Origin: a virus
IMG/VR virus record: IMGVR_UViG_3300008050_000030
Direction: 5' to 3' (one strand)
Length of the DNA: 64,000 nucleotides
Below, in pieces: positions 4,513-60,404 of the stretch. The notes beneath the pieces were generated by a model. The model was not told the DNA's origin, made no database searches, and was given only the letters and a program-made list of their open reading frames with translations. Position numbers and translations under genes: made by a program. Within the stretch, counting starts at the first letter, position 1, and every line of letters starts with the position of its first letter.

Positions 4513-4794
4513 GTGGCTCATCCGTCTGTGCAGATCCCCGTCCTGTGCGAGGGGAAGCTCCAGCCGAACCCCGCCGTCATCAGCGCCAGCGAAGGCGACG
4601 TGACGATCCTGGTGGGCGCCAGCGCGCTGGTCTACCCCCGCACCGGAGTGGTGCGTCAGCTCATCAACCACTGCTACGAGGCCGACACGGTCCTGCAGGA
4701 CCACCTCCCCTACAAGGTCAAGACCTTCCAGCTCCTGGCAGCCCTCAAGAGGCTCGGGGTGTTCGGGCAGCGAGCGCGAGGCTGTGCCGCGTGA
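4513..4794 (+). CDS. hypothetical protein (93 aa)
   Basis: GTG 5 nt after AAGGAG; overlaps the ligase start by 11 nt. Confidence 0.55.
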   Translation: MAHPSVQIPVLCEGKLQPNPAVISASEGDVTILVGASALVYPRTGVVRQLINHCYEADTVLQDHLPYKVKTFQLLAALKRLGVFGQRARGCAA

Positions 4795-6991
4795 TCTCAA
4801 ACCGCTGAAGGAGTTCGCCCCGGGCCTACCTGAGAAAGGTCGGGCCCGGGGTCTCCCTGCGGTCAAGGGGCGCCAGACCTGGGAACTGGCAGTACAAGAC
4901 CACGACGCTCATCGAGCGGGCAGGCACTTTGATCTTAGGTTGGGAGACCCCTCGACGGGTGTCGCGCACTCCTGGGCGTTGCCCAAGGCGAAGCTCCCCG
5001 GCCCCGGGGAGCGCCCCGTGCTCGCGGTACAGCAAGGCGACCACACCTTGGAGTACATGGACTTCCGCGGGAAGATCCCCTCGGGGTACGGCGCTGGGAC
5101 CGTGAAGCGGCATCTGCGGGACCAGGCGGAGGTCTTCCACGCAGATCCCGACAAGATCAAGTTCAACCACTACCGCGGCTCGGGGCACGACGAGTACATC
5201 CTGCGGCGCACCAAGGACAAGAACTGGCTGCTGCAGAACGTGACTCGGCACTCGGGGCGCACACCCGCCATGCCCAAGCCCAAGTACAAGGAGGAGAAGC
5301 GCGAGGCCCAGCTGACCCCCGAGGATGAGGGCAAGGTCTGGGCGCCGAAGGCGGACGGGTCTCACAACGTCTTCGTGCTGGAGAAGGGGAGGCCGATCCG
5401 TGCCTTCTCACACAGGCCGGCGAAGGCGCGGCGCACTGGCCTGATCGAGCACTCCCACAAGGTCCCCGGCCTGATGGACAAGAAGGTCCCCTCTCACCTG
5501 GATGGCACGATCGTCCGTGGGGAGATCTTCGCACGCCCGCATGGAGGAGGGCGACCTCTCCCTGCTGAGCGAGTCAGCGGCCTGCTCAACGCAGGGGTCT
5601 GGAAGTCCCGGAAGGGGCAGGAAGAGCACGGTCCGCTCGAGGTCATGACCTTCGACGTCGCCAGGTACCGCGGCAAGGACATGTCGGCTGCGCCCTACTC
5701 CGAGAAGCTGCGAGTGCTGAAGCAGGTCCAGGCGGAGTTCCCCGGCCTCAAGAGGACCCCAGTGGCCCGGACGAAGTCGGAGAAGCTCCAGATGCTGGAG
5801 GCCATCCGGCGCAAGGAGCACCCGCTCACCGATGAGGGCATCGTCGAGTGGGATCTCGCCGAGGGCACGAGGCCGAAGAAGTACAAGTTCAAGCCGGACG
5901 AGGACCTGGAGATCGTCGGCTTCTTCAAGACCAAGGGGGGCAAGTACGAGGGCACGCACGTCGGCGGCGTGCTGGTCAAGGACCCCAAGGGCAACGTCAG
6001 TCGTGTCGGCACCGGCTTCACCGACGACTTCCGCCGGCTGGCCCACGAGAAGCCCGAGCTCCTCATCGGGCGCACAGCCAAGATCACCTCGATGGGCAAG
6101 TACCCCAGCGGCAAGCTCCGCATCCCCTCCTTCCAGGGCTTGCACCCCGAGAAGAACGACCCCGACGACCTCAAGAAGCTCGAGGAGGCCGGGGTAACGC
6201 TGGAGCAGATGACCCGCACGAAGAAGGCGCACATCACCATCCTCACGGGCGGCATGGGAGCAGGCAAGAGCACTTGGGCCGAGAAGCATCGGGGCAAGTT
6301 CGACTTGGTCCTGGGGACAGACACGGGCAGCCCAGACGGGAAGGGCGGGTACAGCAGCCCCTCGAAAGAGACGAGGGACCGCATTCGCCAGGAGAAGGAT
6401 GAGCAGGCACTTGCGGCCCACAGGGCAGGGAAGCGAGTGTTGCTGGAGGGTTTCCCCAAGGGGATTCTCCAACACCCGAGGTCTCTGGCCGCAGCCGATC
6501 AACGGCTGGTCATGGGGACAGGGCCCGTGAGAAGGCTGTTCCGTGTCGCGAAGCGCTCAAGGCAGCGGGGAACCTCCACGCTAGAGGATTTGGCCTACGC
6601 AGCTGGGACGTTCAAAACGGACCGGGAGAGCTACAGGAAGATCAAAGAGCACGGGCCCCTCACAAAGGTGGCCTCAGCACTGCTGCGCGGGAAGACGGCC
6701 GCCCTGCTCCCACTCAACAAGCCCGTCGTCGTCTCCAAGACGAAGCAGAAGCACATCGACAGCTGGGAGAAGCGCAAGGGCAAGGAGGACCTGGTCTCGA
6801 CCAACCTGGGCACCGTGGCGTACAACCCCAGCAGGAAGACGATGCACGTGGAGTTCGCCAAGGGTGGCCTGTACAGGTACTCCGGGGTCTCCCCGGAGAC
6901 CTACGCCGGCGTGCTGAAGGCGAAGTCCCACGGCAAGCACTTCCACAAGCACGTGAAGGAGCCGGGGTTCCGGTACAGGAGGCTGGTGTGA
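4784..6991 (+). CDS. multidomain nucleic-acid repair enzyme: LigD-type 3'-phosphoesterase + ATP-dependent ligase + P-loop polynucleotide-kinase-like + KTSC domain
   Basis: PE motifs (HFDLRLGD, SWALPKA, FRGKIPSGYGAG); ligase motifs I KADG, III HLDGTIV, IV DEGIVEW, V KKYKFK, plus VGTGFTD; Walker A ILTGGMGAGKST; C-terminal KTSC-like YRYSGVSPETYAGVLKAKSHGKHF. Confidence 0.85.
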   Translation: MPRDLKPLKEFAPGLPEKGRARGLPAVKGRQTWELAVQDHDAHRAGRHFDLRLGDPSTGVAHSWALPKAKLPGPGERPVLAVQQGDHTLEYMDFRGKIPSGYGAGTVKRHLRDQAEVFHADPDKIKFNHYRGSGHDEYILRRTKDKNWLLQNVTRHSGRTPAMPKPKYKEEKREAQLTPEDEGKVWAPKADGSHNVFVLEKGRPIRAFSHRPAKARRTGLIEHSHKVPGLMDKKVPSHLDGTIVRGEIFARPHGGGRPLPAERVSGLLNAGVWKSRKGQEEHGPLEVMTFDVARYRGKDMSAAPYSEKLRVLKQVQAEFPGLKRTPVARTKSEKLQMLEAIRRKEHPLTDEGIVEWDLAEGTRPKKYKFKPDEDLEIVGFFKTKGGKYEGTHVGGVLVKDPKGNVSRVGTGFTDDFRRLAHEKPELLIGRTAKITSMGKYPSGKLRIPSFQGLHPEKNDPDDLKKLEEAGVTLEQMTRTKKAHITILTGGMGAGKSTWAEKHRGKFDLVLGTDTGSPDGKGGYSSPSKETRDRIRQEKDEQALAAHRAGKRVLLEGFPKGILQHPRSLAAADQRLVMGTGPVRRLFRVAKRSRQRGTSTLEDLAYAAGTFKTDRESYRKIKEHGPLTKVASALLRGKTAALLPLNKPVVVSKTKQKHIDSWEKRKGKEDLVSTNLGTVAYNPSRKTMHVEFAKGGLYRYSGVSPETYAGVLKAKSHGKHFHKHVKEPGFRYRRLV

Positions 6992-7824
6992 TCATCCGAA
7001 ACGCCCTCGCAGAGGAGATCTTCAAGCTCGCCGCTCCCGTAGAGGAGTCCCCCGAAGGCGCCTCCCCCTCCTCGGGCGAGAGCGAGCTGAAGGAGGGCCC
7101 CTCAGAGTACTGGACCCAGCGCCGGCAGAAGGCTCGAGCGCACCGCGTCTTCAAGAACCTCCACGGACGCATGCGAACCGAAGGCGTGCTCACCGGGGCA
7201 GGCAAGTACCGCGTGGCCGTCCCGAAGCACGTGCTGACCAAGCAGGACCTCGAGAAGCACCTGGGCTTCGTGCCGGTCAACATCGCCGTGCCGGAATCGG
7301 GACAGCGGCAGTTCGGCAGCTGGAGGCACCCCTACCACAACAACCACGTGCACGATCACGACTCGCACTGGGTCATGCACGAGGACGATCACGCGTCGAC
7401 GACGATGCTGATGCACAAGCGAAAGCTCGAGCTGGCGAAGATCCGAGAAGCTCGGCGGTCGGGTGGCGGCGGGGGCGGAAGAAAGGGCAAGGACATCCCC
7501 GGCCTGGGCGACATCGCCAAGACCACCATCCAGGGCATGCCGCACCTCATCGGTGAAGGCGGGCCCGGCATCCTCTCGTACACGAAGAACCGCATCCTCG
7601 GCCGAGAGGGCATGCTCTCCATCGTGCAGAAGGGGCTGCCCAAGCAGTACCACCGGCGCGTGCGGCGGATGAAGGCGAGCCCGACCTACCAGCGGGCGGC
7701 GGCAGGCAGCCACGATGCCCGGGAGCAGATGCGGCACGTGGGCCGCCACGCCAACCAGATGCGGCAGAGCGCCATGCGGAAGCAGGCCGCCCTGGACGAG
7801 CTCCGTCGCTGGAGGAAATCGTAG
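6988..7824 (+). CDS. hypothetical His-rich protein coupled to the repair enzyme
   Basis: GTG overlaps ligase stop (GTGA); HPYHNNHVHDHDSHWVMHEDDH cluster; G6 linker; basic C-terminus. Confidence 0.7.
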   Translation: MIIRNALAEEIFKLAAPVEESPEGASPSSGESELKEGPSEYWTQRRQKARAHRVFKNLHGRMRTEGVLTGAGKYRVAVPKHVLTKQDLEKHLGFVPVNIAVPESGQRQFGSWRHPYHNNHVHDHDSHWVMHEDDHASTTMLMHKRKLELAKIREARRSGGGGGGRKGKDIPGLGDIAKTTIQGMPHLIGEGGPGILSYTKNRILGREGMLSIVQKGLPKQYHRRVRRMKASPTYQRAAAGSHDAREQMRHVGRHANQMRQSAMRKQAALDELRRWRKS

Positions 7825-8793: not shown

Positions 8794-9074
8794 TGCTGCG
8801 GCTCAACCTGCCGAGGCTCACCGAGGACCTCAGGAACAGGCTCAACGGCTGGCGAGTGGCGTACGTGAACATCGAGGAGGCCCGGACGATCGGGACCTTC
8901 GACCCGCCGTGTGCGTACATCAAGCTCACGAACTGCCTCGGCTATGTGGACGTGGTCGCAGACGGCGAGGTCTTCCTGGACAACGAGAACTGGCAGATGC
9001 CGCTCAAGAGCTTCAAGAAGCAGAAGCACGCCGCGGCCTGGCTGGTCACGCGGCTGGCGAAGGGGAACCAATGA
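8793..9074 (+). CDS. hypothetical protein (93 aa)
   Basis: TGATG overlap with upstream gene; high GC3. Confidence 0.6.
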   Translation: MLRLNLPRLTEDLRNRLNGWRVAYVNIEEARTIGTFDPPCAYIKLTNCLGYVDVVADGEVFLDNENWQMPLKSFKKQKHAAAWLVTRLAKGNQ

Positions 9075-10204
9075 TCACCAACGAAGAGGAGGCTGAGTGC
9101 CCTCTGTGCACGAACGGGACGCTCGGCATCAGCCCCGACCAGGAGAACGGCGAAGCCGAGCTGGTCTGCCGAGGCGAGTGCGGCAGCTACGTGCCCGTGC
9201 AGATGTGCGACTGGATGCGCTACCGCGGCAAGCTCTGCGGTGGGAAGCTCCACATCGTGGAAGGCTCCGGCGCCTGGTGCGGGGAGTGCGAGACGATGTT
9301 CGCCGACGGGAAGGGTCTGCAGGCGGCGTTGAACATGCTGGGCGTGTTCGGGAGCTTCCTCGACGATGACCACACCGAGGCGGACTACGAGAAGTACAGC
9401 GACGTGCTGGGGTTCGTGCAGGGCCACCTCATCGGAGCCGTGAAGCCCGCAGAGCCCACCTGCTGGGTTCTGCTCTACCACCACCGCCACGGCACCGACG
9501 TGGACGTTCACCCGTCTCGGACGGTGGCTGAGGCGGTCGGAGCGTCCATCGTGGCGGACAACCGCCACGAGTTCCCCGACATCCCGAAGGAGTGGTCCAA
9601 CGAGAAGTGCTACGAGCGCTGGGAGGACATGACGGAGGGCATCGAGCGTTTCGAGCTCGTGGAGCGGCCGAGCCCGCTCCCGGCGGTTGCGGCCAACGCT
9701 CAGGCCCTCGTGCCGGTGCCCATGGACGAGGCGTGGATCGAGCAGCTCACCGCTGAGATCGAACGATGGAGGGCTGACGGGTCGGTGCCGATGATGCCGA
9801 TGGACGTGGAGGTGTTGCGCATCCCACCCAACACGCACGGGCTGGAGTCGTTGATGGCGTTCAGCACGGCCCACATCACCCCGGAGACGTGCGGGCGGCT
9901 GGAGGCCGGCGCCAAGTACGCGCGCATGGTCCCCGGACCGAGCAGGACCCGGATCGACGAGATCAAGACGCAGCACGGGCACGTGCCGCGAGATCAGTGG
10001 CTCGAGGCCAGCTTCCTGCGTCAGCGCGGGATGATGCGCCCCGAAGGCTTCCTGCTCCACGTCCCCGAGAACCCTGACGACTGGCCCGAGATGCCCGATG
10101 ACCTGGAGGCCCTGTTCCTCAAGGCGCGGACCAACAACTGCTGCTGGCTGCTGCTCGACGCGGATGGCCCGAAGCACGATGACCTGCCGACCTGGGAGTG
10201 GTGA
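9071..10204 (+). CDS. zinc-finger-containing hypothetical protein (377 aa)
   Basis: ATGA overlap; N-terminal CPLC...CRGEC...CGGK...CGEC cysteine clusters. Confidence 0.7.
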   Translation: MITNEEEAECPLCTNGTLGISPDQENGEAELVCRGECGSYVPVQMCDWMRYRGKLCGGKLHIVEGSGAWCGECETMFADGKGLQAALNMLGVFGSFLDDDHTEADYEKYSDVLGFVQGHLIGAVKPAEPTCWVLLYHHRHGTDVDVHPSRTVAEAVGASIVADNRHEFPDIPKEWSNEKCYERWEDMTEGIERFELVERPSPLPAVAANAQALVPVPMDEAWIEQLTAEIERWRADGSVPMMPMDVEVLRIPPNTHGLESLMAFSTAHITPETCGRLEAGAKYARMVPGPSRTRIDEIKTQHGHVPRDQWLEASFLRQRGMMRPEGFLLHVPENPDDWPEMPDDLEALFLKARTNNCCWLLLDADGPKHDDLPTWEW

Positions 10205-11800: not shown

Positions 11801-12070
11801 ATGCCCACGTACCAGTACCGGCGCGAACAGCGCGTCACCATCGAGGCAGACAACGAGGATGCCGCCTGGAAGGCCGCGGAGGAGCTGCAGCTGACCAGCC
11901 GCGATGACGAGTCGGACGACAAGGGGGAGATGGAGCTCCTCGAAGGCGAGGAGTTGCGGGACTGGGGGTGCTGCGGGTGCACCTGCTCGGTCTGCATGAA
12001 CGGCCACTCCGGCGGCGCTCACGCGGAGAACTGCGAGAAGCGGATGGCGGCGAGGCAGGCCGCGGGGTGA
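11801..12070 (+). CDS. Cys-rich small protein
   Basis: AAGGAG SD; WGCCGCTCSVCMNGH cysteine cluster. Confidence 0.65.
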   Translation: MPTYQYRREQRVTIEADNEDAAWKAAEELQLTSRDDESDDKGEMELLEGEELRDWGCCGCTCSVCMNGHSGGAHAENCEKRMAARQAAG

Positions 12071-12627
12071 GCTGGTTCCTGTACGTCGTGGAGTGCAACG
12101 CTCGCGGCAAGCCGCTGTACACCGGCATCTCGACGAACGTCGAGCAGCGCGTCAAGACCCACAACGCCGGCAAGGGCGCGAAGTACGTGAAGGGGAAGCT
12201 CCCCGTCGTCCTGGTGGCGACGTGGGAGTACCCCGACAAGAGCACTGCGCTGAGGGCCGAGATCGCCTTCAAGAGCCTGAGCCGGCTGGCCAAGCAGATC
12301 TACGTCCAGTCCCCCGATCAGTGGGACTGGGAGAATCCGAAAAGACGACGCGTTCAAGCGGATGCTGAAGAAGCTGGGATGGAGAGGGTGATGGCCAAGA
12401 CCAGGATCGTTTCGAGCAAGGAGCTGACCTCTCGGTCGCTCCGGGCCGAGGACTACGTGGACAGGGAGACCGCCTGCTGGGGCTGCGGCAAGTGGTCCTC
12501 CACGATCTACTGCCAGGGGTGCGCCGACGCCGGCAAGGCGAAGTGCCCCCACGACAAGGAGGTCACCGACTGCAACGACTGCATGGTCGAAGGCGACCTC
12601 GCCCACGACGCGAGGAGGGAGGGGTGA
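12067..12627 (+). CDS. GIY-YIG nuclease superfamily protein with C-terminal Cys-rich zinc ribbon
   Basis: WFLYVVECNARGKPLYTGISTNVEQRVKTHNAGKGAKYVKGK matches the YhbQ/UPF0213-type GIY-YIG core; GTGA overlap start. Confidence 0.75.
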   Translation: MSWFLYVVECNARGKPLYTGISTNVEQRVKTHNAGKGAKYVKGKLPVVLVATWEYPDKSTALRAEIAFKSLSRLAKQIYVQSPDQWDWENPKRRRVQADAEEAGMERVMAKTRIVSSKELTSRSLRAEDYVDRETACWGCGKWSSTIYCQGCADAGKAKCPHDKEVTDCNDCMVEGDLAHDARREG

Positions 12628-13592
12628 GGCTCAACGCCGAGCGGATCGTGACCCTGAACCTGGGGCTCGGCCGCGACTCCATCGCGATGCTGCTGTTGCT
12701 CCTCGCCGACGCCCTTGTGGTGGACGGCGAGGAGCGGGGGCAGGAGGACATCGACGTCGTCGTCTTCAGCAACACCGGCGCGGAGTGGCCCCACACTTAC
12801 GCCTTGCTGCCGCAGATCAGAGAGCTGTGCGAGAGCGTGGGGCTCCGCTTCATCGTGCTGGAGAAGCCGCCCGCGGGTGCGTGGCAGCCGTGGCTGCACG
12901 AGAAGATGTCCCAGGGCATCAGCAAGCTGCTCCAGCCCTGGACCCAGGGCGAGTGGCGGACTATCGAGGAGAAGGCGGCCTCGGGCGCCTACCACCTGCG
13001 CCCGCCCATCATCGACGACTACCGCAGCCGCAAGACGGTGGTGTCCATCAGCAAGGGAGACTGCACCGACAACCACAAGATCCAGCCCATCCGCAAGCTC
13101 ATCGCCGACCTCGCGCGTGAGCGCTTCGACGTCAAGAGCAACGCCTCCTGGGGCCACCAGGTCCGCAAGGGCACCCGGCCGACACACCTGAGCCTCATCG
13201 GCATCGCCGCGGATGAAGCCAGCCGGGCGGAGGCGGAGAGCGAGGCGCAGTACGTCAGCGAGGCCTACCCCCTTCTGGAGATGGGCATCACCAAGGCCGG
13301 CGAGAGCGAGATCTTGGAGCCTTGGGGCTTCGATCACGTCTTCAAGAGCGGCTGCTACCACTGCCCCTACCAGCCCCCGGGCTGGTACTGGGTAGTGCGC
13401 GAGACCCTGCCGGACTTCTGGCTGGAGCTCCTGGAGTACGAGGCAGCTGCCCTGGCCGAGAACCCCCGCATGTTCGTCACCGGGAAGAAGCCCCTCGCCG
13501 ATGTGGTGGAGACCTGGAGAGCCAAGAACCCGGACGCGACCATCGAGGCCGTGCTCCGCAAGTCCTACAAGCGGTGCGGACGCGCCGCATGA
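12624..13592 (+). CDS. PAPS-reductase / DndC-like ATP-pyrophosphatase family protein
   Basis: VTLNLGLGRDS PP-loop-like N-terminus; C-terminal CYHCPY cysteines; GGAGGG SD; GTGA overlap. Confidence 0.65.
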   Translation: MRLNAERIVTLNLGLGRDSIAMLLLLLADALVVDGEERGQEDIDVVVFSNTGAEWPHTYALLPQIRELCESVGLRFIVLEKPPAGAWQPWLHEKMSQGISKLLQPWTQGEWRTIEEKAASGAYHLRPPIIDDYRSRKTVVSISKGDCTDNHKIQPIRKLIADLARERFDVKSNASWGHQVRKGTRPTHLSLIGIAADEASRAEAESEAQYVSEAYPLLEMGITKAGESEILEPWGFDHVFKSGCYHCPYQPPGWYWVVRETLPDFWLELLEYEAAALAENPRMFVTGKKPLADVVETWRAKNPDATIEAVLRKSYKRCGRAA

Positions 13593-14105: not shown

Positions 14106-14431
14106 CCGACTGGAATCCGAGGTACATCGCCTACTGCGACTCCCTCGGCCTGACCCCTGAGCAGGAGCGCGCCAGCGTCGCCGAGCGCTTCCAAGGCTCC
14201 ACCACGATGCACGAGTTCATCATCTGGATGAGCGCGCGTCAGCGGGAGTTCCAGAAGGATCGGGAGTGCATCGCCAACGAGGACCCCGACCAAGAACGCT
14301 TCTGCTTCCACATGCACATCGCCTGCGACCGCGGGCAAAACGACTGGACGGCTTGGCTCCAAGAGCGGGCGATCCAGCTTCGAGAGGGCAGACCATGGAC
14401 TTCAATCTCCGGCAGCACACCCACCTGCTGA
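14102..14431 (+). CDS. hypothetical protein
   Basis: GTGA overlap start; 3' end overlaps next gene by 37 nt. Confidence 0.55.
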   Translation: MTDWNPRYIAYCDSLGLTPEQERASVAERFQGSTTMHEFIIWMSARQREFQKDRECIANEDPDQERFCFHMHIACDRGQNDWTAWLQERAIQLREGRPWTSISGSTPTC

Positions 14432-15510
14432 CCGTTGCAGGTTCCCGTGCCTACGGTATTCACACCGAGACCAGCGACGTCGACATGGCCGGCGTCGCCA
14501 TCCCCCCGAAGGAGTACACCTACGGCTTCCTGAAGAAGTTCGACCAAGCCGTCGGCAAGAGCCACTTCGGCGCCTTCGCGCACAGGCTCCACCTCGATGA
14601 GGCCCGGGCCTCCGTGAACGGGCTGGAGGGGGTGATCTACGACCTCCGCAAGTTCATGAAGCTGGCGTCGGACTGCAACCCCAACATCCTGGACGTCCTG
14701 TTCTGTCGCGACGATGAGGTCCGGCTCATGACCCCCACCGGCGAGTGGCTGCGTGACCGCCGAGACTGGTTCCTCAGCCAGAAGGCCAAGCACACCTTCA
14801 GCGGGTACGCGATGAGCCAGCTCAAGCGCATCCGTGGGCACCGGAACTGGCTACTCAGCCCTCCGACGGCGCCGCCCTCCCGGAGCGACTTCGGTCTGCC
14901 CGAGCGCACCGTCATCCCTGCTGATCAGCGAGGGGCGGCGCTGTCCCTGGTGAAGAAGCGGATGGCCTCGTGGGACGTGGACCTGGAGGTCCTGGACAAG
15001 CCGGACCGGCTCGCGGTGAAGGGAGAGCTGGAGGCGATGATGGTCGAGCTGCAGCTCGCCTCAGACACGGAGCTGTGGCAGGCCGCGGCGCGCACTGTCG
15101 GGCTCAGCGACAACTTCATCGACCTGCTGGAGCGGGAGCGCGGCTACCGCGCGGCCATGGGCAACTGGAAGCAGTACCAGAACTGGAAGACCAGCCGGAA
15201 CCCGGCTCGCGCTGCCCTGGAGGAGAAGTACGGCTACGACACGAAGCACGGCGGGCACCTCGTCCGCCTCATGAACATGGGGCTCGAGCTGCTCCAGACG
15301 GGGGAGCTCAACGTCTGGCGCGGCGACATCGACGCCGAGTTCATCCTCAGCGTGCGCGCTGGGCACCTCCCCTACGACGAGCTCATCCAGTGGGCCGAGG
15401 ACCGGGAGGCGCTGATGGACGAGGCGGTGAAGACCTCCCCGCTGCCGAAGAGGCCGAACCGCAAGAAGCTGGACGAGCTCTGCGTCCAGCTGATCGAGTC
15501 GAATCTGTAG
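14395..15510 (+). CDS. Pol-beta-superfamily nucleotidyltransferase (pfam10127-like)
   Basis: GSRAYGIHTETSDVDMAGVA is the NTase G-S...D-x-D signature; GAGGG SD before ATG. Confidence 0.7.
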   Translation: MDFNLRQHTHLLTVAGSRAYGIHTETSDVDMAGVAIPPKEYTYGFLKKFDQAVGKSHFGAFAHRLHLDEARASVNGLEGVIYDLRKFMKLASDCNPNILDVLFCRDDEVRLMTPTGEWLRDRRDWFLSQKAKHTFSGYAMSQLKRIRGHRNWLLSPPTAPPSRSDFGLPERTVIPADQRGAALSLVKKRMASWDVDLEVLDKPDRLAVKGELEAMMVELQLASDTELWQAAARTVGLSDNFIDLLERERGYRAAMGNWKQYQNWKTSRNPARAALEEKYGYDTKHGGHLVRLMNMGLELLQTGELNVWRGDIDAEFILSVRAGHLPYDELIQWAEDREALMDEAVKTSPLPKRPNRKKLDELCVQLIESNL

Positions 15511-15520
15511 ACGGAGAGCA

Positions 15521-16268
15521 CATGACCGAAGATCTGGACCGCTTCACCGCGGGCACGCACCCCTTCGCCTTGGTCCGCCGGGCCCCTCCCGAGTTGTTGG
15601 GGGCCCGGCGGAGCCACGAGGACGTCGAGAAGCTGCTGATGGGGGTGACGAGCTCGGACCTGCGCTATGCCTACCAGGACCCCAACTACGCCATCGTCCG
15701 GGGCTTCTCCGAGGAGAGGCTCAAGGAGCTGGGGATCGGCTACGACCTGGACCTGGGCGGCCACGAGTGGTCGAACCCTGCTCCGGATCACCCGCTCGTC
15801 AACGACTGCTGTGCGCTGTGGGAGAGCCCGGACCTGGACTACCTCGGCCTGCAGGACGTCGCGGGGTGGGACGTCGACCTCTGCGCCTTCGCTCCGAACT
15901 CGGGGCACTTCCAAGCGACGCGGTGGCCGCCCACCATGAGGGTGGACGGGGATCCCTACGATCTGGTCGGGCAGGGGATCTACTCCGAGACCGACCACGA
16001 CTGCATCTGCCACGGCGGCCTGGAGTACTGGACCGGCGCCGCCGGCGAACCCAAGGAGCCCATCACCCTCGACCAGCTCGGCGAGTGGTCGGAGAAGGGG
16101 GCGCTGCCCCCGAACATGCTCGCCGACGCCCTTCGTTGGAAGGGCCTGGCCTACTGGAAGTGCTCCGGCAACGTCGGAGACATCCCCTACCCCCTCTGTG
16201 ATCGCTGTGAAGGCGATGGACACGTCACCTCCCCTGGAGGGGAGTGGGCGCTCTACAGGAGAACCTGA
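15521..16268 (+). CDS. hypothetical protein (249 aa)
   Basis: GTAGACGGAGAGCACATG initiation context; high GC3. Confidence 0.7.
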
Positions 16269-16798
16269 TGCAGATTCTGACCGCCCCCCTCGTGGTGGCT
16301 GACCTCGACCTCGTGCAGGTCGTCCTCTGGAAGAAGGCCGTCGACTCGGCCCTGAACAAGGTGTCCGCCGAGGACACGGAGCTGCTTTGCGGCTTGCTCG
16401 ACTTCCTCAACGCTCTGCACGACGCCCACCCGGGCCTGGAGGACACCGCTCGAGCTGCCGAAGCCCTCACCGGCGAGGAGGAGCAGGACAACCTCGCTCC
16501 CGACGCCGTCGACCCCGACTTCGACCCGATGGCCATGCGCCACTGTGCCCAGGTCGGCCCCTTCGGCACGGAGGTCCCCTCCACCACGGACTTCGGCAAG
16601 AAGTACCGGGTCGAGTACACGGCCTACGGCAAGTGGGTCTGCTCCTGCCCCAACTTCCAGCAGCGCGGGGCGGTCTGCAGCCACATCAACACGGTGCAGT
16701 CGTCGCGATGCGACTGGCACCAGCTGCTCCACGGTGACGCCGCCAAGGCCCCCGACTACAAGTGCCCCAAGTGCGGCGGGCCGACCAGCGAGGTGTGA
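16268..16798 (+). CDS. SWIM zinc-finger protein
   Basis: CSCPNFQQRGAVCSHI fits the SWIM C-x-C-xn-C-x-H motif; AGGAGAACCTGATG context. Confidence 0.7.
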   Translation: MQILTAPLVVADLDLVQVVLWKKAVDSALNKVSAEDTELLCGLLDFLNALHDAHPGLEDTARAAEALTGEEEQDNLAPDAVDPDFDPMAMRHCAQVGPFGTEVPSTTDFGKKYRVEYTAYGKWVCSCPNFQQRGAVCSHINTVQSSRCDWHQLLHGDAAKAPDYKCPKCGGPTSEV

Positions 16799-16799
16799 G

Positions 16800-17759
16800 A
16801 TGCAGACCGACGACGAGCTGTACGCGAGCCTTGTGCTCCCCTGGGAGGCCGACAACGCCTCCTCCATCAACATCCAGGGCGCCGACGACCTCGACGCGGC
16901 GCTGACGATGGCGGACCTGGACTGGACCGCGGCGAGCCGCCCGCTCCTGTTCCGGGATCCCGACGACGAGACCAACCTGATCGAGGTGGAGACCCACAAG
17001 GCGGTGGTGCGGGAGGACACGCTGGACCAGATCGGCGTGGTCGGTGTCACCTACGAGATCGTGCAGAACCGAGAGGCTCTGTCCCTGCTCCGCGGCATCG
17101 CCGGCCGGGGCAAGGACCTCACCTTCGTCCGAGGAGGCACCTTCAAGGAGGGCCGGGTCGTCTGGGTGATGCTCAGCATCGACGACTTCCTCATCGAGCC
17201 GGTGCCGGGAGACGTGCTCATCCCCTACATCCTCATCTCGAACAGCCACAACGGCAGTCAGGGGGTGCGAGCCACGTTCTCGGCCCACCGACACGCCGGG
17301 CTGAGCGTGCACAACGTCGGTCGGGGGCTGAGTTTCCGGCACACGAGGCACGTGGTCGATCGGATGGAGCGCGGGGAGAGCGTCCTGGCCGCCGGGCTGG
17401 ACTCCTTCGAGCGGTTCCACGACTTCGCCCTCGACCTGGCGCAGCAACCGATGCCGCAGGAGGACTGGGAGGCCTTCCTGGACGCCTTCATCCCGCCCCC
17501 GGAGGAGGGAGTCCGCCCTGGGCGCCGCAACAAGGCCAGGGCGACGCTCACGCGCCTCTTCGAGTCCGGGCCGGGCACGGACATCCCGGGTGTCAAGAAG
17601 ACGCGCTGGGCGGCGCTCAACGCCGTCTCGCTGTGGCAGACGCACTTCGCCTCGTCCAAGGACGGGGAGAAGGCCCTGAACTCGCTCTGGTTCCAGAGCG
17701 GGGCGTCCAAGCTGGACGTGGCGGCAGGCCTGCTGAGGAAGCTGCACGCGGTGCGGTGA
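16800..17759 (+). CDS. DUF932-like phage/plasmid-associated protein
   Basis: ILISNSHNGSQGVRATFSAHR resembles the DUF932 core; last gene of the + block. Confidence 0.65.
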   Translation: MQTDDELYASLVLPWEADNASSINIQGADDLDAALTMADLDWTAASRPLLFRDPDDETNLIEVETHKAVVREDTLDQIGVVGVTYEIVQNREALSLLRGIAGRGKDLTFVRGGTFKEGRVVWVMLSIDDFLIEPVPGDVLIPYILISNSHNGSQGVRATFSAHRHAGLSVHNVGRGLSFRHTRHVVDRMERGESVLAAGLDSFERFHDFALDLAQQPMPQEDWEAFLDAFIPPPEEGVRPGRRNKARATLTRLFESGPGTDIPGVKKTRWAALNAVSLWQTHFASSKDGEKALNSLWFQSGASKLDVAAGLLRKLHAVR

Positions 17760-29852: not shown

Positions 29853-29965
29853 GATCTTCTCCGGGGAAGGGGTTCACACCTCTTATCCCCCCATACCAAC
29901 TGGAAGTTGTCAGCTAAGCAGGAGCGAGGGGGGACCCTCGCTGCGACTGCTTTCGGCCCGCCCCC

Positions 29966-30285
29966 CTAGAAGGGGGACAGGTCTTCCAGCCCGGTTCCGA
30001 ACCGGGCCCGGACTGCGTCCCACACGCGGCACGCCGCGTAGTACGGCAGCCCAATGGGTGCCGTCACCACCAGCAGGGCGGCCATGCCCGCGCGCTGCCA
30101 GCCCGACTCCGACGAGTCGGAGGCGAACCCGACCCCGGTCCCGTACAGGGACCCGAGCATCCTCGTCACCGTGACGGTGATGAAGGAGGCGGCGGCGAGA
30201 GCCAGCGGCCGGAGCGCTGCCGTGAGGCAGCGGGTCAGCAGGGTGGCGATGAACTTGGCGAGGAACTTGGCGATGGTCTTCATAT
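29966..30285 (-). CDS. small membrane protein (MKTIA-family paralog)
   Basis: MKTIAKFLAKFIATLL; CCCTGGAGTTCGATATG context. Confidence 0.6.
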
Positions 30286-30563
30286 CGAACTCCAGGGAAC
30301 GAAGACGGCAGGGGCGCGAGAAAACCTCGCAAAGCCTCCTGTTGGTGACACTTCTCTTATCCCCGAAACACCCCCTTTTTCTGCACTTTGCAGCTGCCCT
30401 CACGCCTCCCCATCGAGCGGGTAAGTGTGCCCCTCGGCCCCGGTCAAGGGGCGCGTTTGACGGGCGGGCCGCCCGAGCTATTGCTCCCAGAGTCAGCCAG
30501 GGGTTATTGCCCCTGACCTGTCGCGCGGGGATCGAACCCGCCTCCCTTCACACCTGTCGTCAG

Positions 30564-31151
30564 CTACCCAGCCGGACTCGAACCGGCCCTTTCCTGGATC
30601 GTCTGCTCTCGGTACCAGCACCAGTAGGTCTCGGTGTGGTGCCGCCGCCATGGGTTGTGCCCTTCCGGCTTCGGCACCAAGTCCCAGGCGACCCCGCGGC
30701 TGTGGGTGCGCCGAGGCCGCTGCTTGCAGCCGGGGTCGGGGTCGTGGATGCCCCAGTACTCCGACTTCAGCGCGTAGCAGTAGACGCGGCCCCTCCCTCG
30801 GCCCCAGCGGATGGCCTGATCGATCTCCCAGGGCAGGTCCGCCTCGGCGATCTCAGGCAGGTACCCGTGCTCCTCCACCAGCCGAGTGAGCATCCTCTGG
30901 CCCAGCGCCCTCCTCTCTGCCTTCGTCATCGGGATGAGCGGAGGCCGGGAGGGGAACTTGGGGAGCTCGCCCTCCCAGAGCCGCTTGCAGTCCCCGCAGA
31001 CGTCCTCGGCGAAGATGGACTCGAGCGGGCGCTCGACAGGGTCCTTGGGCAGCGCGTTGTGGTCGACGCCGGCGATGTGCGCCTTGCCTGTGTTCCACGG
31101 GTCCTTCAGGCCGAGCTGGTACTCGGTACGCCGGGCCTGGATGAACCTCAT
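30564..31151 (-). CDS. Cys/His-rich hypothetical protein, possibly HNH-like
   Basis: CGDC...CYALKSEYWGIHDPDPGC...H..H; preceded by a 12-codon uORF. Confidence 0.6.
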   Translation of the reverse strand: MRFIQARRTEYQLGLKDPWNTGKAHIAGVDHNALPKDPVERPLESIFAEDVCGDCKRLWEGELPKFPSRPPLIPMTKAERRALGQRMLTRLVEEHGYLPEIAEADLPWEIDQAIRWGRGRGRVYCYALKSEYWGIHDPDPGCKQRPRRTHSRGVAWDLVPKPEGHNPWRRHHTETYWCWYREQTIQERAGSSPAG

Positions 31152-31817: not shown

Positions 31818-31990
31818 CGGTCTTCTCCTTGTTGTGCGCGGTCACGCCCCGGCTGCGATGACGGCGACGAAGCCCGGGTCGGGACCGAAGTACCAGTAGA
31901 TCCGAGCACTCTTCCTTCTTGCCGAGTTCGATCACGTCTGTCTCCAGTTGGGTGTACCCGCCTTATCCCGTGAACAACTGTCGGTTGCTA

Positions 31991-32061
31991 ATCAGCGAGG
32001 GGGACTCGAACCCCCAACATCTCCTTTGCGCGGGAGGGCTCTACCATTGAGCTATCTCTGA
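31991..32061 (-). tRNA. tRNA-like gene with defective anticodon arm
   Basis: Canonical D-arm TAGCTCAATGGTAGAGC and T-arm GGGGGTTCGAGTCCCCC; acceptor stem with one A-G mismatch; anticodon arm is only CTCC/GGAG with an 8-nt loop lacking U33; no encoded CCA. Confidence 0.5.
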
Positions 32062-32097
32062 CACTCTTCTTATCCCCTCAACAACTCCCAGTTGACG

Positions 32098-58321: not shown

Positions 58322-59797
58322 CAGTCCTTGGAGCTTCGAGTTGACGCACTCCTCCACTTCCTTGTCGTCGCGGAAGGCGACGATGCGGGGGTGGATCATG
58401 GCGTTGGTCTTGCCCCCCTCGGAGACGTAGAAGCGCGTGGAGTACTCCACGCGCACGACCAGGGGGTAGAGGTCAGGGTCGGCCAGGTTGGCTTTGTTCT
58501 CCTTCGTCAGGCCGCCTCCGCAGTCGCAGAGGTAGATCAGGTCGCCATCGTCGGTGAGCTGGTGCAGCGCCACGCTGCCCACCTGCCCCTGGTACTTCCC
58601 CGTGCCCCAGGTGCCGAGGCCCTGGTCCGGCTCCCAGTAGGCGATGCAGTCGTCCTCGTAGACCGGCTTGAGCTTCCCAGTGAACTTGCCCGGCCGGTCC
58701 GGCTTGCCGCGGAAGTTGTAGGCCCGATCGCCGAAGACGCCCTTGGGGTCGACGACCACCCAGCCCTCCCAGCCGTTGTACTGCGCGAGGGCTCGGGCGA
58801 TCTGGTCGAGGTGGACCACCACCTCCTCCTTGCCCCCGCCCTCCATGAGGACGGCCGTCGGGAAGAGGGACCGTCGCTTGGAGTAGCGGAGCTCGCGCCC
58901 CTCCTGACCGGCGGCCCAGATCACCGCGCGGATGCCCTCCTCCCAGACCTGCTTGGGGGTGAGGGTCTGCAGAGGGAGCAGCCACTGCGCGTCCTTGGTG
59001 AGCTCCTCGATGGTCCCCATGCGCTCCGAGAAGGTGCGCGTGGTCCCCACCATCTCCCCGTCCCACGCCCCGATGTCCCAGACGTACATCGAGAGCCAGG
59101 GGTTGCCTCCGGACTGCTGGAGCTGGAGCGCCTTGTTGGTGTAGGACTTGGTGACCTGCTGGACGAAGGCGAAGTCGTCCTTGCCTCCTCGGTCGGCGAC
59201 GAGCTCCCCCAGCAGGATGGAGTTCGGAGGGATGACGCCCTCCCGCAGCATCACGAGGACCTCCTCGTAGAGCATGGGGAAGCGCTCGGCCCAGAGGCGG
59301 TAGCTCTCCCCCTCCGCCTCTCGGTCATGGGTGGGCCGCATCCGACGGCTGTAGATCTCCACGTCGTCGTCGGTGGTGCGGATGACGTGCATCATCCCCT
59401 CGCGCTTCCGCCCGAAGAGCACGCCCTTGCCCAGCAGCACCTTCTTGAGGAGCGTGGCGGACAGCGTGTTGTCCGGCTTGTAGAAGCAGAGGGAGAGCGG
59501 CAACTGCTCGTCGGGGAGCAGGGCGATGGGGGCCGCGTCCTCGCCGTCCTCGAGGTACCCCTTGTACACCTGCAGCATGATCTTTCGGGCGGCCCGGTCC
59601 AGGGCGTAGTCCTCGGCGTCGATCTCGTTGGACTTGCCCACGTTGATGGCGCTGTAGGTGTGGGAGGTCTCCTGCATGGCGCCCCCGAGGACGCCGTGGG
59701 TGGTGGTTTCGGTCGCGCCGTCGACGCGGATGGTCCAGGCCAGCGTGTGCTTGCGGCCCTTCTGTCGGAACTCGCGGGTCTCACCCGTCCAGGCCAT
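58316..59797 (-). CDS. ATP-dependent DNA (or RNA) ligase
   Basis: Motif I KREGMMHVIR...IYSRR; III LLGELV; IV EGWVVVDPKG; V GKLKPV; VI HPRIVAFRDDKEVEE. Confidence 0.75.
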   Translation of the reverse strand: MAWTGETREFRQKGRKHTLAWTIRVDGATETTTHGVLGGAMQETSHTYSAINVGKSNEIDAEDYALDRAARKIMLQVYKGYLEDGEDAAPIALLPDEQLPLSLCFYKPDNTLSATLLKKVLLGKGVLFGRKREGMMHVIRTTDDDVEIYSRRMRPTHDREAEGESYRLWAERFPMLYEEVLVMLREGVIPPNSILLGELVADRGGKDDFAFVQQVTKSYTNKALQLQQSGGNPWLSMYVWDIGAWDGEMVGTTRTFSERMGTIEELTKDAQWLLPLQTLTPKQVWEEGIRAVIWAAGQEGRELRYSKRRSLFPTAVLMEGGGKEEVVVHLDQIARALAQYNGWEGWVVVDPKGVFGDRAYNFRGKPDRPGKFTGKLKPVYEDDCIAYWEPDQGLGTWGTGKYQGQVGSVALHQLTDDGDLIYLCDCGGGLTKENKANLADPDLYPLVVRVEYSTRFYVSEGGKTNAMIHPRIVAFRDDKEVEECVNSKLQGLP

Positions 59798-60404
59798 CGT
59801 CTGCTCCTTCGCTCAGCTTCAGCTGCTTCTGGTTCTCGCACCAGGCGTGGTAGCCCAGGCGGGTGTCGCCGTTGGCGACTTCGTACTGCCAGTCCTTCGA
59901 GGGGTTGGTCGGGTCCTCCTCCCAGTGGCCGGGCGTCTCGGCCTTCAGGCTGTCCTCCTGGTCGCGGATCCAGCTCTGGGTGCCTCCCCAGCGGATGTCG
60001 TCGCGCAGGATGAAGCAGGCCCAGCCCCCGTGCTCCCCCTGGCGGAGCTTGTCGCAGGTGAAGGCGCCCTCGACCCAGAGGTAGGGGTACTCCTCCTCGT
60101 CCAGGCCCGTGAGGATGTGCTGAAGGAGGGTCGCCCCGTCCTCCGAGAGGCCGTATTCGCAGAAGAGGTAGAACTTGCCGCCCTGGGGCTCGAAGTCCAG
60201 TCGCCCGTCGCGGTACTCGTAGGTGAGGCCCAGGGCAATGGCCTTGCGGTCGAGAGCGAGCTGTTCGGTGTTCTCGGGGTCGAGGACCGTGCCGTCGTCG
60301 AAGTCGATCGCGGCGTCGTCGGGGTCCCAGCGAAGGAGGTCCTGTTGGGCCTCGGTCAAGGGGAGGAGAGGGGAAACGGTCCCCTGGGAGTGGTTGTTGG
60401 CCAT
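59781..60404 (-). CDS. hypothetical acidic protein (207 aa)
   Basis: High GC3; coupled downstream to the ligase. Confidence 0.65.
   Translation of the reverse strand: MANNHSQGTVSPLLPLTEAQQDLLRWDPDDAAIDFDDGTVLDPENTEQLALDRKAIALGLTYEYRDGRLDFEPQGGKFYLFCEYGLSEDGATLLQHILTGLDEEEYPYLWVEGAFTCDKLRQGEHGGWACFILRDDIRWGGTQSWIRDQEDSLKAETPGHWEEDPTNPSKDWQYEVANGDTRLGYHAWCENQKQLKLSEGADDGLDG

Follow-up and report, generated by a model that had tools for sequence, protein, structure and literature searches.

We analysed a 64,000-nucleotide stretch of viral DNA (IMG/VR virus record IMGVR_UViG_3300008050_000030), called the window below, and focused on a plus-strand gene that encodes a single protein of 735 residues. 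The protein joins a LigD-type 3'-phosphoesterase (PE), an ATP-dependent ligase, a P-loop kinase-fold module and a KTSC tail in one chain, and its gene is translationally coupled to a second gene for a His-rich partner. An earlier note, made from the letters of the DNA alone, had pointed to this combination of domains. Our analysis suggests that the protein is a multifunctional end-healing and end-sealing enzyme; it represents a large uncharacterised viral family.

The gene pair and its reading frames

Table 1. Features of the window, by position from its first letter; aa, amino-acid residues of the encoded protein
Feature	Position	Strand	Remarks
Upstream open reading frame (ORF), 93 aa	4513..4794	+	Conserved; its last 11 nt lie within the 735-aa gene
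Multidomain gene	4784..6991	+	GTG start, 735 aa; order PE, ligase, P-loop kinase, linker, KTSC
LigD-type PE, aa 9-158	4808..5257	+	Catalytic H40, H48, D50, R52, H87, Y91
EFAPGLP N-peptide motif, aa 10-16	4811..4831	+	Signature of the PE module's start throughout the family
ATP-dependent ligase (nucleotidyltransferase and OB), aa 176-464	5309..6175	+	Motif I K189 (KADG), III DGTIVRGEIF, IV EGIVEW, V KKYKFK, OB VGTGFTD, R446
P-loop kinase-fold module, aa 479-631	6218..6676	+	Walker A GGMGAGKST (K495), invariant D513 (LGTD), lid R591 (RVAKR), D602
Lys/Ala-rich linker, aa 632-659 (including GKTAALLP)	6677..6760	+	Predicted disordered, pLDDT 30-38
KTSC domain, aa 660-735 (Pfam match aa 672-726)	6761..6988	+	Presumed nucleic-acid-binding tail
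Translational coupling site	6977..6991	+	AGGAGG at 6977-6982, 5 nt upstream of the start; GTGA start/stop overlap at 6988-6991
Partner gene, 278 aa	6988..7824	+	Conserved core aa ~41-230 with invariant His/Asp cluster
DUF5983	9071-10204	+	Same gene block as the 735-aa gene
GIY-YIG nuclease	11968-12627	+	Same gene block
PAPS-reductase-like protein	12492-13592	+	Same gene block
RlaP ('RNA repair pathway' Pol-beta-type nucleotidyltransferase)	14266-15510	+	PF10127 1.1e-15; same gene block
SWIM protein	16244-16798	+	Same gene block
DUF932	16545-17759	+	Same gene block
tRNA-like gene	29953-30029	-	
tRNA-like gene	30563-30657	-	
tRNA-like gene	31990-32062	-	
Second ligase-like ORF, 493 aa	58316-59797	-	Unrelated to the PE-ligase module
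Neighbour of the second ligase-like ORF	59781-60404	-	
MVP-like ORF, 867 aa	60489-63092	-	Pfam MVP_shoulder 2.6e-25, Vault_3 4.7e-10

The 735-residue ORF is a real gene (Table 1). Its G+C content at third codon positions (GC3) is 0.87, which fits a coding sequence in a window with 66% GC, and every motif quoted in the earlier note was found at its place in the protein. The window matches an independently assembled ENA contig (L003; 188,377 bp; ERZ27249009 k141_382418), which we located via the partner protein, at 99.966% identity and without a single gap across 17.8 kb. Homologs from other samples at 73-75% identity each form one unbroken ORF with the domain order unchanged. The earlier note had allowed that the ORF might be a fusion artefact with an internal stop in the real genome, and this is not the case: the two assemblies agree without indels, the coding signal is continuous, and the architecture is repeated in the homologs and in distant lineages. 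In favour of an assembly or frameshift artefact joining separate genes is the shorter, 657-residue product given by public gene callers, and we regard the chance of such an artefact as negligible.

On both the JGI and the ENA contigs, the public calls start the gene at V79 (P0001), so that window positions 4784-5017 are lost, and with them half of the PE active site, including the metal-binding motifs. Because this start cuts the PE motifs, the precomputed annotation of P0001 shows KTSC only. Given that a conserved N-terminus and the invariant residues H40, H48, D50 and R52 precede V79, the 735-residue version of the gene is right and the public 657-residue call too short. The 93-residue ORF upstream was called in the same position on L003, on L004 (homolog at 1.4e-36) and on the contig of P0003. 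It is confined to the closest relatives, all of which keep its overlap with the long gene, and a Pfam scan of it gave zero matches.

The partner ORF has a GC3 of 0.89, and its GTG start overlaps the TGA of the long gene. The coupling of the two genes proposed earlier can be read directly from this overlap and from the AGGAGG sequence before it, and the 4-nt overlap is also present in the syntenic pairs on L004 and the P0003 contig. We found six homologs of the partner only, none of them named. Pfam and PHROG gave no match, and neither did Foldseek with the predicted structure (best E 0.35). Its invariant residues (H114, H120, H122, H124, H131, D133, H135 and H186) form a cluster on a predicted beta-hairpin, in a core that AlphaFold2 models with a predicted local distance difference test (pLDDT) score of 70-87. 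This core also occurs inside PE-ligase polypeptides of two other phages, in the order partner-PE-LIG (where LIG is the ligase; L014:5284-7407, 1e-52) and in the order PE-LIG-partner (L071:5680-9522, 8e-41), and it represents a new conserved His-cluster domain. Because of these fusions and the synteny of the pair, the window's two genes form, to judge from their sequences, one functional unit. We also considered a zincin (HExxH) peptidase that would process the multidomain protein, and rejected it because P0127 has HHDEH, without the Glu, because the segment is a predicted beta-hairpin and because a structural match was not found.

Domains of the multidomain protein

The PE domain passes the Pfam LigD_N model (1.1e-12, 48.5 bits against a gathering cutoff of 31.1) and falls below the cutoff of the stricter equivalog-domain model NCBIfam TIGR02777 (56 vs 144 bits). 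phmmer matched it to solved PEs of Candidatus Korarchaeum (3p4h, 1.8e-15), Methanosarcina barkeri (3p43) and Pseudomonas LigD (2lj6 and 3n9b), with which it aligns over the motifs VQxH...HxDxRL, SWAxPK, DHxxxY and GxIPxGxYGAG (HFDLRL, SWALPKA and GKIPSGYGAG here). The PE superfamily is characterised by an eight-stranded beta-barrel and by Mn-dependent 3'-phosphatase and 3'-ribonucleoside resection activities, which the window domain would be expected to share. Mutagenesis and crystallography have defined the PE active site as six side chains, with His, His and Asp for Mn and Arg, His and Tyr for phosphate, and the substrates of the characterised enzymes are DNA strands with a 3'-phosphate or 3'-ribonucleotides (PMC3082917). 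The six catalytic residues of the window protein are the counterparts of these side chains, match the motifs of PaePE, CkoPE and MbaPE, and are invariant in our alignment of 35 family sequences. The PE claim of the earlier note is thus borne out, and by this alignment both the identity of the domain and its intact active site can be taken as demonstrated. The N-peptide has the family form E[FY]APGIP, with E10, A12, P13, G14 and P16 invariant or nearly invariant in the 35 sequences; it occurs 143 times among the relatives, 35 of these internal to longer proteins.

The ligase module matches PHROG_114 (ATP-dependent DNA ligase) at 6e-25, and its Pfam matches are below threshold (DNA_ligase_OB_2, 6e-5, 23.4 vs 28 bits; DNA_ligase_A_M, 0.016, 15.3 vs 26.2 bits). 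Since many family members have precomputed PF01068 or PF14743 matches, we regard the window ligase as a divergent member and not a non-member. K189, D191, R211, R245, E351, G352, K368 and R446 are invariant in the 35-sequence alignment, K366 is nearly so, and the segments EGIVEW, KKYKFK and VGTGFTD align to DNA ligases. Among solved structures the module comes nearest to archaeal, LigE and Chlorella-virus DNA ligases, and each of these matches is weak. With the PHROG match, the conserved K189, motifs III-V and the oligonucleotide-binding (OB) segment in place, the ligase read from the letters stands. The module appears to be a divergent, minimal nucleotidyltransferase-OB enzyme of the DNA type, not an Rnl-type RNA ligase.

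The window also contains a second ligase-like ORF, which matches PHROG_114 (7.6e-13) and PF01068 (7.5e-5), has KREG as motif I and adjoins a gene resembling the Major Vault Protein (MVP). L001 likewise has another ligase-like gene, 3 kb away from its PE-ligase. With an unrelated ligase-like gene present in both the window and L001, the PE-ligase would not be the phage's sole ligase.

The order of PE and ligase recalls LigD, for example the PE-LIG-POL protein of Pseudomonas aeruginosa, in which a homologous PE with the same six catalytic residues, shared also by the stand-alone archaeal CkoPE and MbaPE, precedes an ATP-dependent ligase in a single chain; the common logic is healing of the 3' end followed by sealing. 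A phage copy of LigD working in Ku-dependent non-homologous end joining (NHEJ), for example in genome circularisation, could be proposed on the strength of this order and of partial matches to NCBIfam LigD models (1.5e-24, mostly over the PE). However, the curated LigD models remain far below their cutoffs (NF007210 86 vs 989 bits, TIGR02776 22 vs 373, TIGR02779 28 vs 228), Pfam and NCBIfam scans of the protein contain no archaeo-eukaryotic primase (AEP) polymerase (POL) domain, and the ligase is of the minimal phage, LigE and Chlorella-virus type rather than of the LigD ligase clade. The window family further differs in its distinct N-peptide, in not conserving the equivalent of PaePE Glu82, in the added P-loop kinase and KTSC modules, and in being viral rather than cellular. 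Ku had no match among representatives of the ten most recurrent clusters of genes within 4 kb of a PE-ligase (68 loci), nor in scans of the 38 window ORFs besides the two described here. By its domains, its model scores and the Ku scans, the protein appears to fail LigD membership, and we consider a LigD-like end-joining role very improbable.

The P-loop module is, with confidence, a kinase fold as modelled by AlphaFold2 from seven homologs (pLDDT 84-93). Foldseek with this model placed adenylate and uridylate kinases at the top and Pnkp1 of the Pnkp1/Rnl/Hen1 complex fourth, with tRNA kinase among the close structural neighbours, and a single-sequence search of the PDB reached adenylate kinase at E 0.86. 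The module thus seems closest to adenylate kinase in sequence and, in the model, equally close to polynucleotide and tRNA kinases. Only Walker A, D513, one Gly and lid R591 are invariant, both in an alignment of 7 family members and in one of 45. The Arg of the adenylate-kinase GFPR motif and the Arg residues of the nucleoside monophosphate (NMP) site are not conserved, and the segment equivalent to the NMP-binding subdomain is short in the model.

At the linker that follows, P0002, P0003 and P0004 have insertions of 50-230 residues. The insertion of P0003 and P0004 (~130 residues, at the boundary of kinase and KTSC) contains VVDGIHRL, which by eye resembles the DGxHR of ParB/sulfiredoxin type. 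A conserved cleavage or linker motif of the form 'KTAAL / F.KLA' was considered and rejected, given that it is present at 4 of 27 non-redundant internal junctions only and that the linkers are merely Lys/Ala-rich. The KTSC-like tail noticed earlier was confirmed by Pfam (2.4e-16, 59.6 vs 25 bits) and by 7x8c, matched in sequence (3.6e-11) and in structure (Foldseek TM-score 0.73); the C-terminal KTSC of HerA (8wiv) matches at 1.2e-4. The domain, named after the C-terminal domain of lysyl-tRNA synthetase, has been called RNA-binding in jumbo phages (PMC7824862) and DNA-binding in another comparative paper (PMC9503650), and our literature search found no experimental work on it.

A viral family and its genomic surroundings

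The first 465 residues, which hold the PE and the ligase, match hundreds of unnamed proteins of ~480 residues at 41-48% identity. A pattern scan of IMG/VR confirmed 93 PE-ligase loci, many of them on contigs of 170-226 kb, and the same scan of one genome each for 185,579 species returned two contigs from metagenome-assembled genomes only, one of 204 kb. The PE-ligase is absent from 50,697 GenBank phage records, in which megablast found none and tblastn found seven weak, ligase-only matches. By these searches, the PE-ligase core appears to be a large unnamed viral family of more than 110 proteins that is almost absent from cellular genomes.

To count architectures, our own hidden Markov models (HMMs) of PE, LIG, P-loop (PLOOP) and KTSC were mapped on all fetched proteins (~130 mapped). 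The plain PE-LIG form was found in 111 proteins, PE-LIG-PLOOP in six, PE-LIG-PLOOP-KTSC in five, PLOOP-PE in four, PLOOP-KTSC in two, and PLOOP-PE-LIG and KTSC-PLOOP in one each; two further kinase fusions were found in IMG/VR loci (L020 and L065). An exhaustive HMM search with the kinase module gave 153 representatives, 55 of them at E<1e-10, mostly inside multidomain proteins. Among 45 kinase-family members from independent 50%-identity clusters, AAA_18 was matched in 34, AAA_33 in 19 and LigD_N (PE) in eight. Because the fusions occur in different orders and in divergent lineages, we take the kinase to be functionally coupled to the PE-ligase and to KTSC. A stand-alone kinase homolog, P0121, was considered as a split version adjoining a PE-ligase and was rejected, as its 3.3-kb contig contains no PE-ligase. 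The earlier note did not recognise the domain order as described. Our literature search agrees, as it found no description of a viral PE-ligase or of the PE-ligase-kinase-KTSC architecture; however, the protein is not a one-off, given the size of the PE-ligase family and the recurrent kinase fusions.

Other domains are attached to the core as well. Long PE-ligase ORFs (far above 480 residues) include SNF2 helicase, NUDIX, 2H 'Swiss-army-knife' phosphoesterase, Rpb1 domain 5 (Rpb1_5) and DUF5661, and other relatives carry PF18823, which we take to be the InPase pyrophosphatase domain, C39 peptidase or PF14091; C39 or C92 peptidases are also added or swapped. In P0005, P0006 and the L001 gene (L001:9962-12136), an Ala/Gly-rich tail stands in place of kinase and KTSC. 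Directly upstream of the L001 gene, whose PE is degenerate, lies a gene for a 1157-residue NUDIX and Peptidase_C92 protein.

Across the same 68 loci, the recurrent neighbours of the PE-ligase are the beta' subunit of multisubunit RNA polymerase (RNAP; 14 loci, mostly directly upstream), SNF2 helicase (12), a sigma-70-like protein (5) and large terminase (4), and no RNA ligase, Pnkp or Hen1 cluster is among them. In other clades of the family, the PE-ligase can lie directly 3' of RNAP beta' (Rpb1 domains 1-5 and Rpb2_7) or be fused to one (L064); the RNAP beta', SNF2 or sigma-70-like context was seen at L007, L009, L012, L014, L019, L038, L040, L047, L048, L064, L068, L069 and other loci. tblastn of the window found no homologs of the RNAP beta', SNF2, sigma and terminase neighbours of these other clades.

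By PHROG and Pfam, the 38 other window ORFs are mostly orphans. Its recognisable genes include those for an M15 peptidase with a peptidoglycan-binding domain, a sigma factor, a GIY-YIG nuclease and DUF932, besides tRNA genes. With its many orphan ORFs, the window has the look of an accessory or early region in a large phage genome. One of its tRNA-like genes is an unusually long tRNA-Thr of 95 nt, and another has a four-base anticodon (cgca) and no amino acid assigned. On L002, a 215-kb NCBI metagenome contig with P0019, a stand-alone KTSC, a Ro60-type vWA protein, NUDIX, dCMP deaminase and a faint AAA_33 kinase lie less than 10 kb from a plain PE-ligase, perhaps as the same toolkit in dispersed form.

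At the far end of the window, the MVP-like ORF aligns to residues 491-830 of rat and human MVP (E ~1e-19) and is of similar total length. Its relatives in the phage collection are limited to unannotated 'uncultured phage' genomes of 462 kb and 735 kb (LR756500, LR756501 and LR756503; 38% identity over 82-96%), and in the literature we found no vault-protein homolog described from a phage. GC3 is 0.91-0.97 in this ORF, the second ligase-like ORF and the neighbour between them, against 0.8-0.9 elsewhere in the window.

Proposed function

We propose that the 735-residue protein and its partner constitute a phage heal-and-seal enzyme that is independent of Ku and most probably serves nicks or breaks in the phage's own DNA, a proposal to which we give about an even chance. 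The PE, with its His-His-Asp metal site and Arg-His-Tyr phosphate site, would strip a 3'-phosphate or trim 3'-ribonucleotides to leave a 3'-OH. The P-loop module would transfer the gamma-phosphate of ATP to a 5'-OH end, with D513 as the general base and K495 and R591 on the phosphates, and the ligase, adenylylated at K189, would then seal the 3'-OH/5'-phosphate junction. KTSC, flexibly tethered, would hold the nucleic acid, and the His-cluster partner would contribute an additional, probably metal-dependent activity. The setting may be the mending of phage DNA after damage that host nucleases inflict or that arises at entry and replication, possibly as part of the polyvalent repertoire of large phages.

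We infer this setting, the polynucleotide substrate of the kinase and the preference for DNA over RNA. DNA seems the likelier substrate because PE and ligase belong to DNA-repair families, because relatives associate with enzymes that work on DNA templates (RNAP beta' and SNF2), and because no Rnl, RtcB or Hen1 components are linked. The earlier note had offered tRNA re-ligation and nick repair as alternatives; the former is less likely than DNA repair, given the DNA-type nucleotidyltransferase-OB ligase and a PE family known to act on DNA ends.

Several observations weigh against our proposal. Most PE-ligases are without a kinase (111 of the ~130 mapped), which would make the kinase an accessory. 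In P0005 and P0006, relatives at 60% identity, the PE is degenerate, with HxDxR and DHxxxY gone and the ligase kept. The choice between DNA and RNA would, in our analysis, come from family precedent and nothing else, and RNA is hinted at by RlaP, 7 kb downstream, and by the relative's contig with a Ro60-type vWA protein and a stand-alone KTSC. Further points concern the kinase. Its AAA_33 match is below the cutoff (0.044, 14.5 vs 27 bits), and a D-x-x-R motif is absent. Against PDB sequences, the family profile has its best match in adenylate kinase 1 (7e-4), which it covers from end to end, and its match to Pnkp (CthPnkp kinase) spans only the P-loop to the following Asp. Alignment by hhalign to T4 Pnk (a sequence 100% identical to X03007.1) covers 19 columns, restricted to Walker A, and we rejected homology to T4 Pnk for this reason. 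Moreover, the kinase occurs in tandem copies in some relatives, which fits small-molecule kinases better. Of the kinase claim in the earlier note, the fold with its Walker A therefore stands, and action on polynucleotide ends is less certain.

A small-molecule kinase would be adenylate-kinase-like, clearing AMP or regenerating ATP for the ligase, or it would be an independent effector in a polyvalent chain. In addition to the tandem copies and the structural ranking, the full-length match to adenylate kinase 1 includes the (D/E)G(F/Y)P(R/K) motif and the short-LID pattern. Many kinase proteins, among them P0121, are found without a PE-ligase, and PE-ligase relatives are fused to NUDIX and PF18823, where a pyrophosphatase would likewise clear pyrophosphate. 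However, NMP kinases need extra Arg residues for the acceptor phosphate, and it is the GFPR and NMP-site Arg residues that this family lacks, together with a full-sized NMP-binding segment. The positions left invariant, Walker A, the Asp and the lid Arg, make up the minimal catalytic equipment of hydroxyl kinases, T4 Pnk for example. This pattern would favour a hydroxyl acceptor for the module, although an Asp in the general-base position of D513 is also present in adenylate kinases and is necessary rather than diagnostic for a polynucleotide kinase. Furthermore, the independent fusion to KTSC in three architectures would be hard to explain for a nucleotide kinase, and the module lies directly 3' of the ligase in at least six divergent lineages. 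Taken together, we consider a small-molecule role rather doubtful, though a serious candidate.

The same chain could instead repair RNA, above all tRNA, as a counter-defence: the PE would heal the 2',3'-cyclic or 3'-phosphates left by host anticodon nucleases, the kinase would act on the 5'-OH, the ligase would reseal and KTSC would bind the tRNA. Beyond the RlaP and Ro60 contexts, such a role is consistent with the tRNA-synthetase origin of KTSC and its description as RNA-binding, with the three tRNA genes of the window, with the fusion of PE-LIG to a 2H phosphoesterase in one giant relative, and with the structural proximity of tRNA kinase to the P-loop module. On the other side, the ligase is of the DNA type with an OB domain and not Rnl1-5 or RtcB, the recurrent neighbours and fusions are RNAP beta' and SNF2 rather than an RNA-repair cluster, and KTSC has also been called DNA-binding. 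PE enzymes have been characterised on DNA; the word 'cyclic' is absent from the PE paper (PMC3082917), and our literature search found nothing on PE enzymes acting on cyclic phosphates. We therefore regard RNA repair as unlikely.

Returning to DNA repair, a more specific version can be imagined, in which the protein and its His-cluster partner are an early-acting, possibly virion-delivered machine that re-seals the phage's own genome, without Ku, at breaks where host defence nucleases or damage on entry have left 3'-phosphate/5'-OH ends, as a form of 'anti-restriction by repair'. In sister clades with RNAP and SNF2, the family might then perform a LigD-like ribonucleotide-patch repair, with RNAP in place of the LigD polymerase. 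This scenario is speculative, and we would not expect it to hold in full. To our knowledge, the only demonstrated case of anti-restriction through repair concerns tRNA (T4 Pnkp/Rnl1) and not phage DNA.

The earlier note had likened the protein to T4 Pnkp with Rnl1, to Pnkp/Hen1 and to LigD. The functional triad of kinase, phosphatase and ligase is indeed common to bacterial Pnkp (Pnkp/Hen1 of Clostridium thermocellum), baculovirus and T4 Pnkp with Rnl, and fungal and plant Trl1, all of which act on RNA. The parts differ, however: where those systems use a calcineurin, HAD or 2H phosphoesterase, the window protein has a LigD-type PE, presumably a beta-barrel, and it has a DNA-ligase nucleotidyltransferase-OB module instead of an Rnl-type ligase, a different domain order and no Hen1. 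A functional analogue on DNA is mammalian PNKP with XRCC1/Lig3, where an ATP-dependent DNA ligase seals dirty nicks once a 3'-phosphatase and a 5'-kinase have prepared them; there the activities reside in separate proteins with a HAD phosphatase, whereas here one phage chain would combine them, with a PE phosphoesterase. The protein also resembles the polyvalent proteins (Iyer et al. 2017, PMC5512222), which join disparate enzymatic domains on one chain through disordered linkers and vary their domain sets, as the relatives described here do with SNF2, NUDIX, PF18823, 2H, peptidase and RNAP fragments. That survey covers neither PE, ATP-dependent ligase and KTSC domains nor the PE-ligase combination. 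Polyvalent proteins are further marked by packaging in the virion, injection with the DNA and linkage to MuF, portal or zincin processing peptidases; Pfam scans found no such domain in or next to the window gene.

In summary, the kinase-phosphatase-ligase triad is rebuilt here from non-homologous parts, and the window protein, with its kinase and presumed nucleic-acid-binding tail, is the most complete version in its family. LigD-type phosphoesterases have so far been studied in cellular NHEJ and as orphan archaeal enzymes; here such a PE forms the core of a virus-specific family that is missing from cultured-phage databases. The architecture provides a first functional context for KTSC and for the His-cluster partner domain, and the protein is a possible single-chain reagent to repair and ligate 3'-phosphate/5'-OH ends. 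If DNA is the substrate, the family would imply that host defences make 'dirty' DNA breaks and that phages counter them by direct repair.

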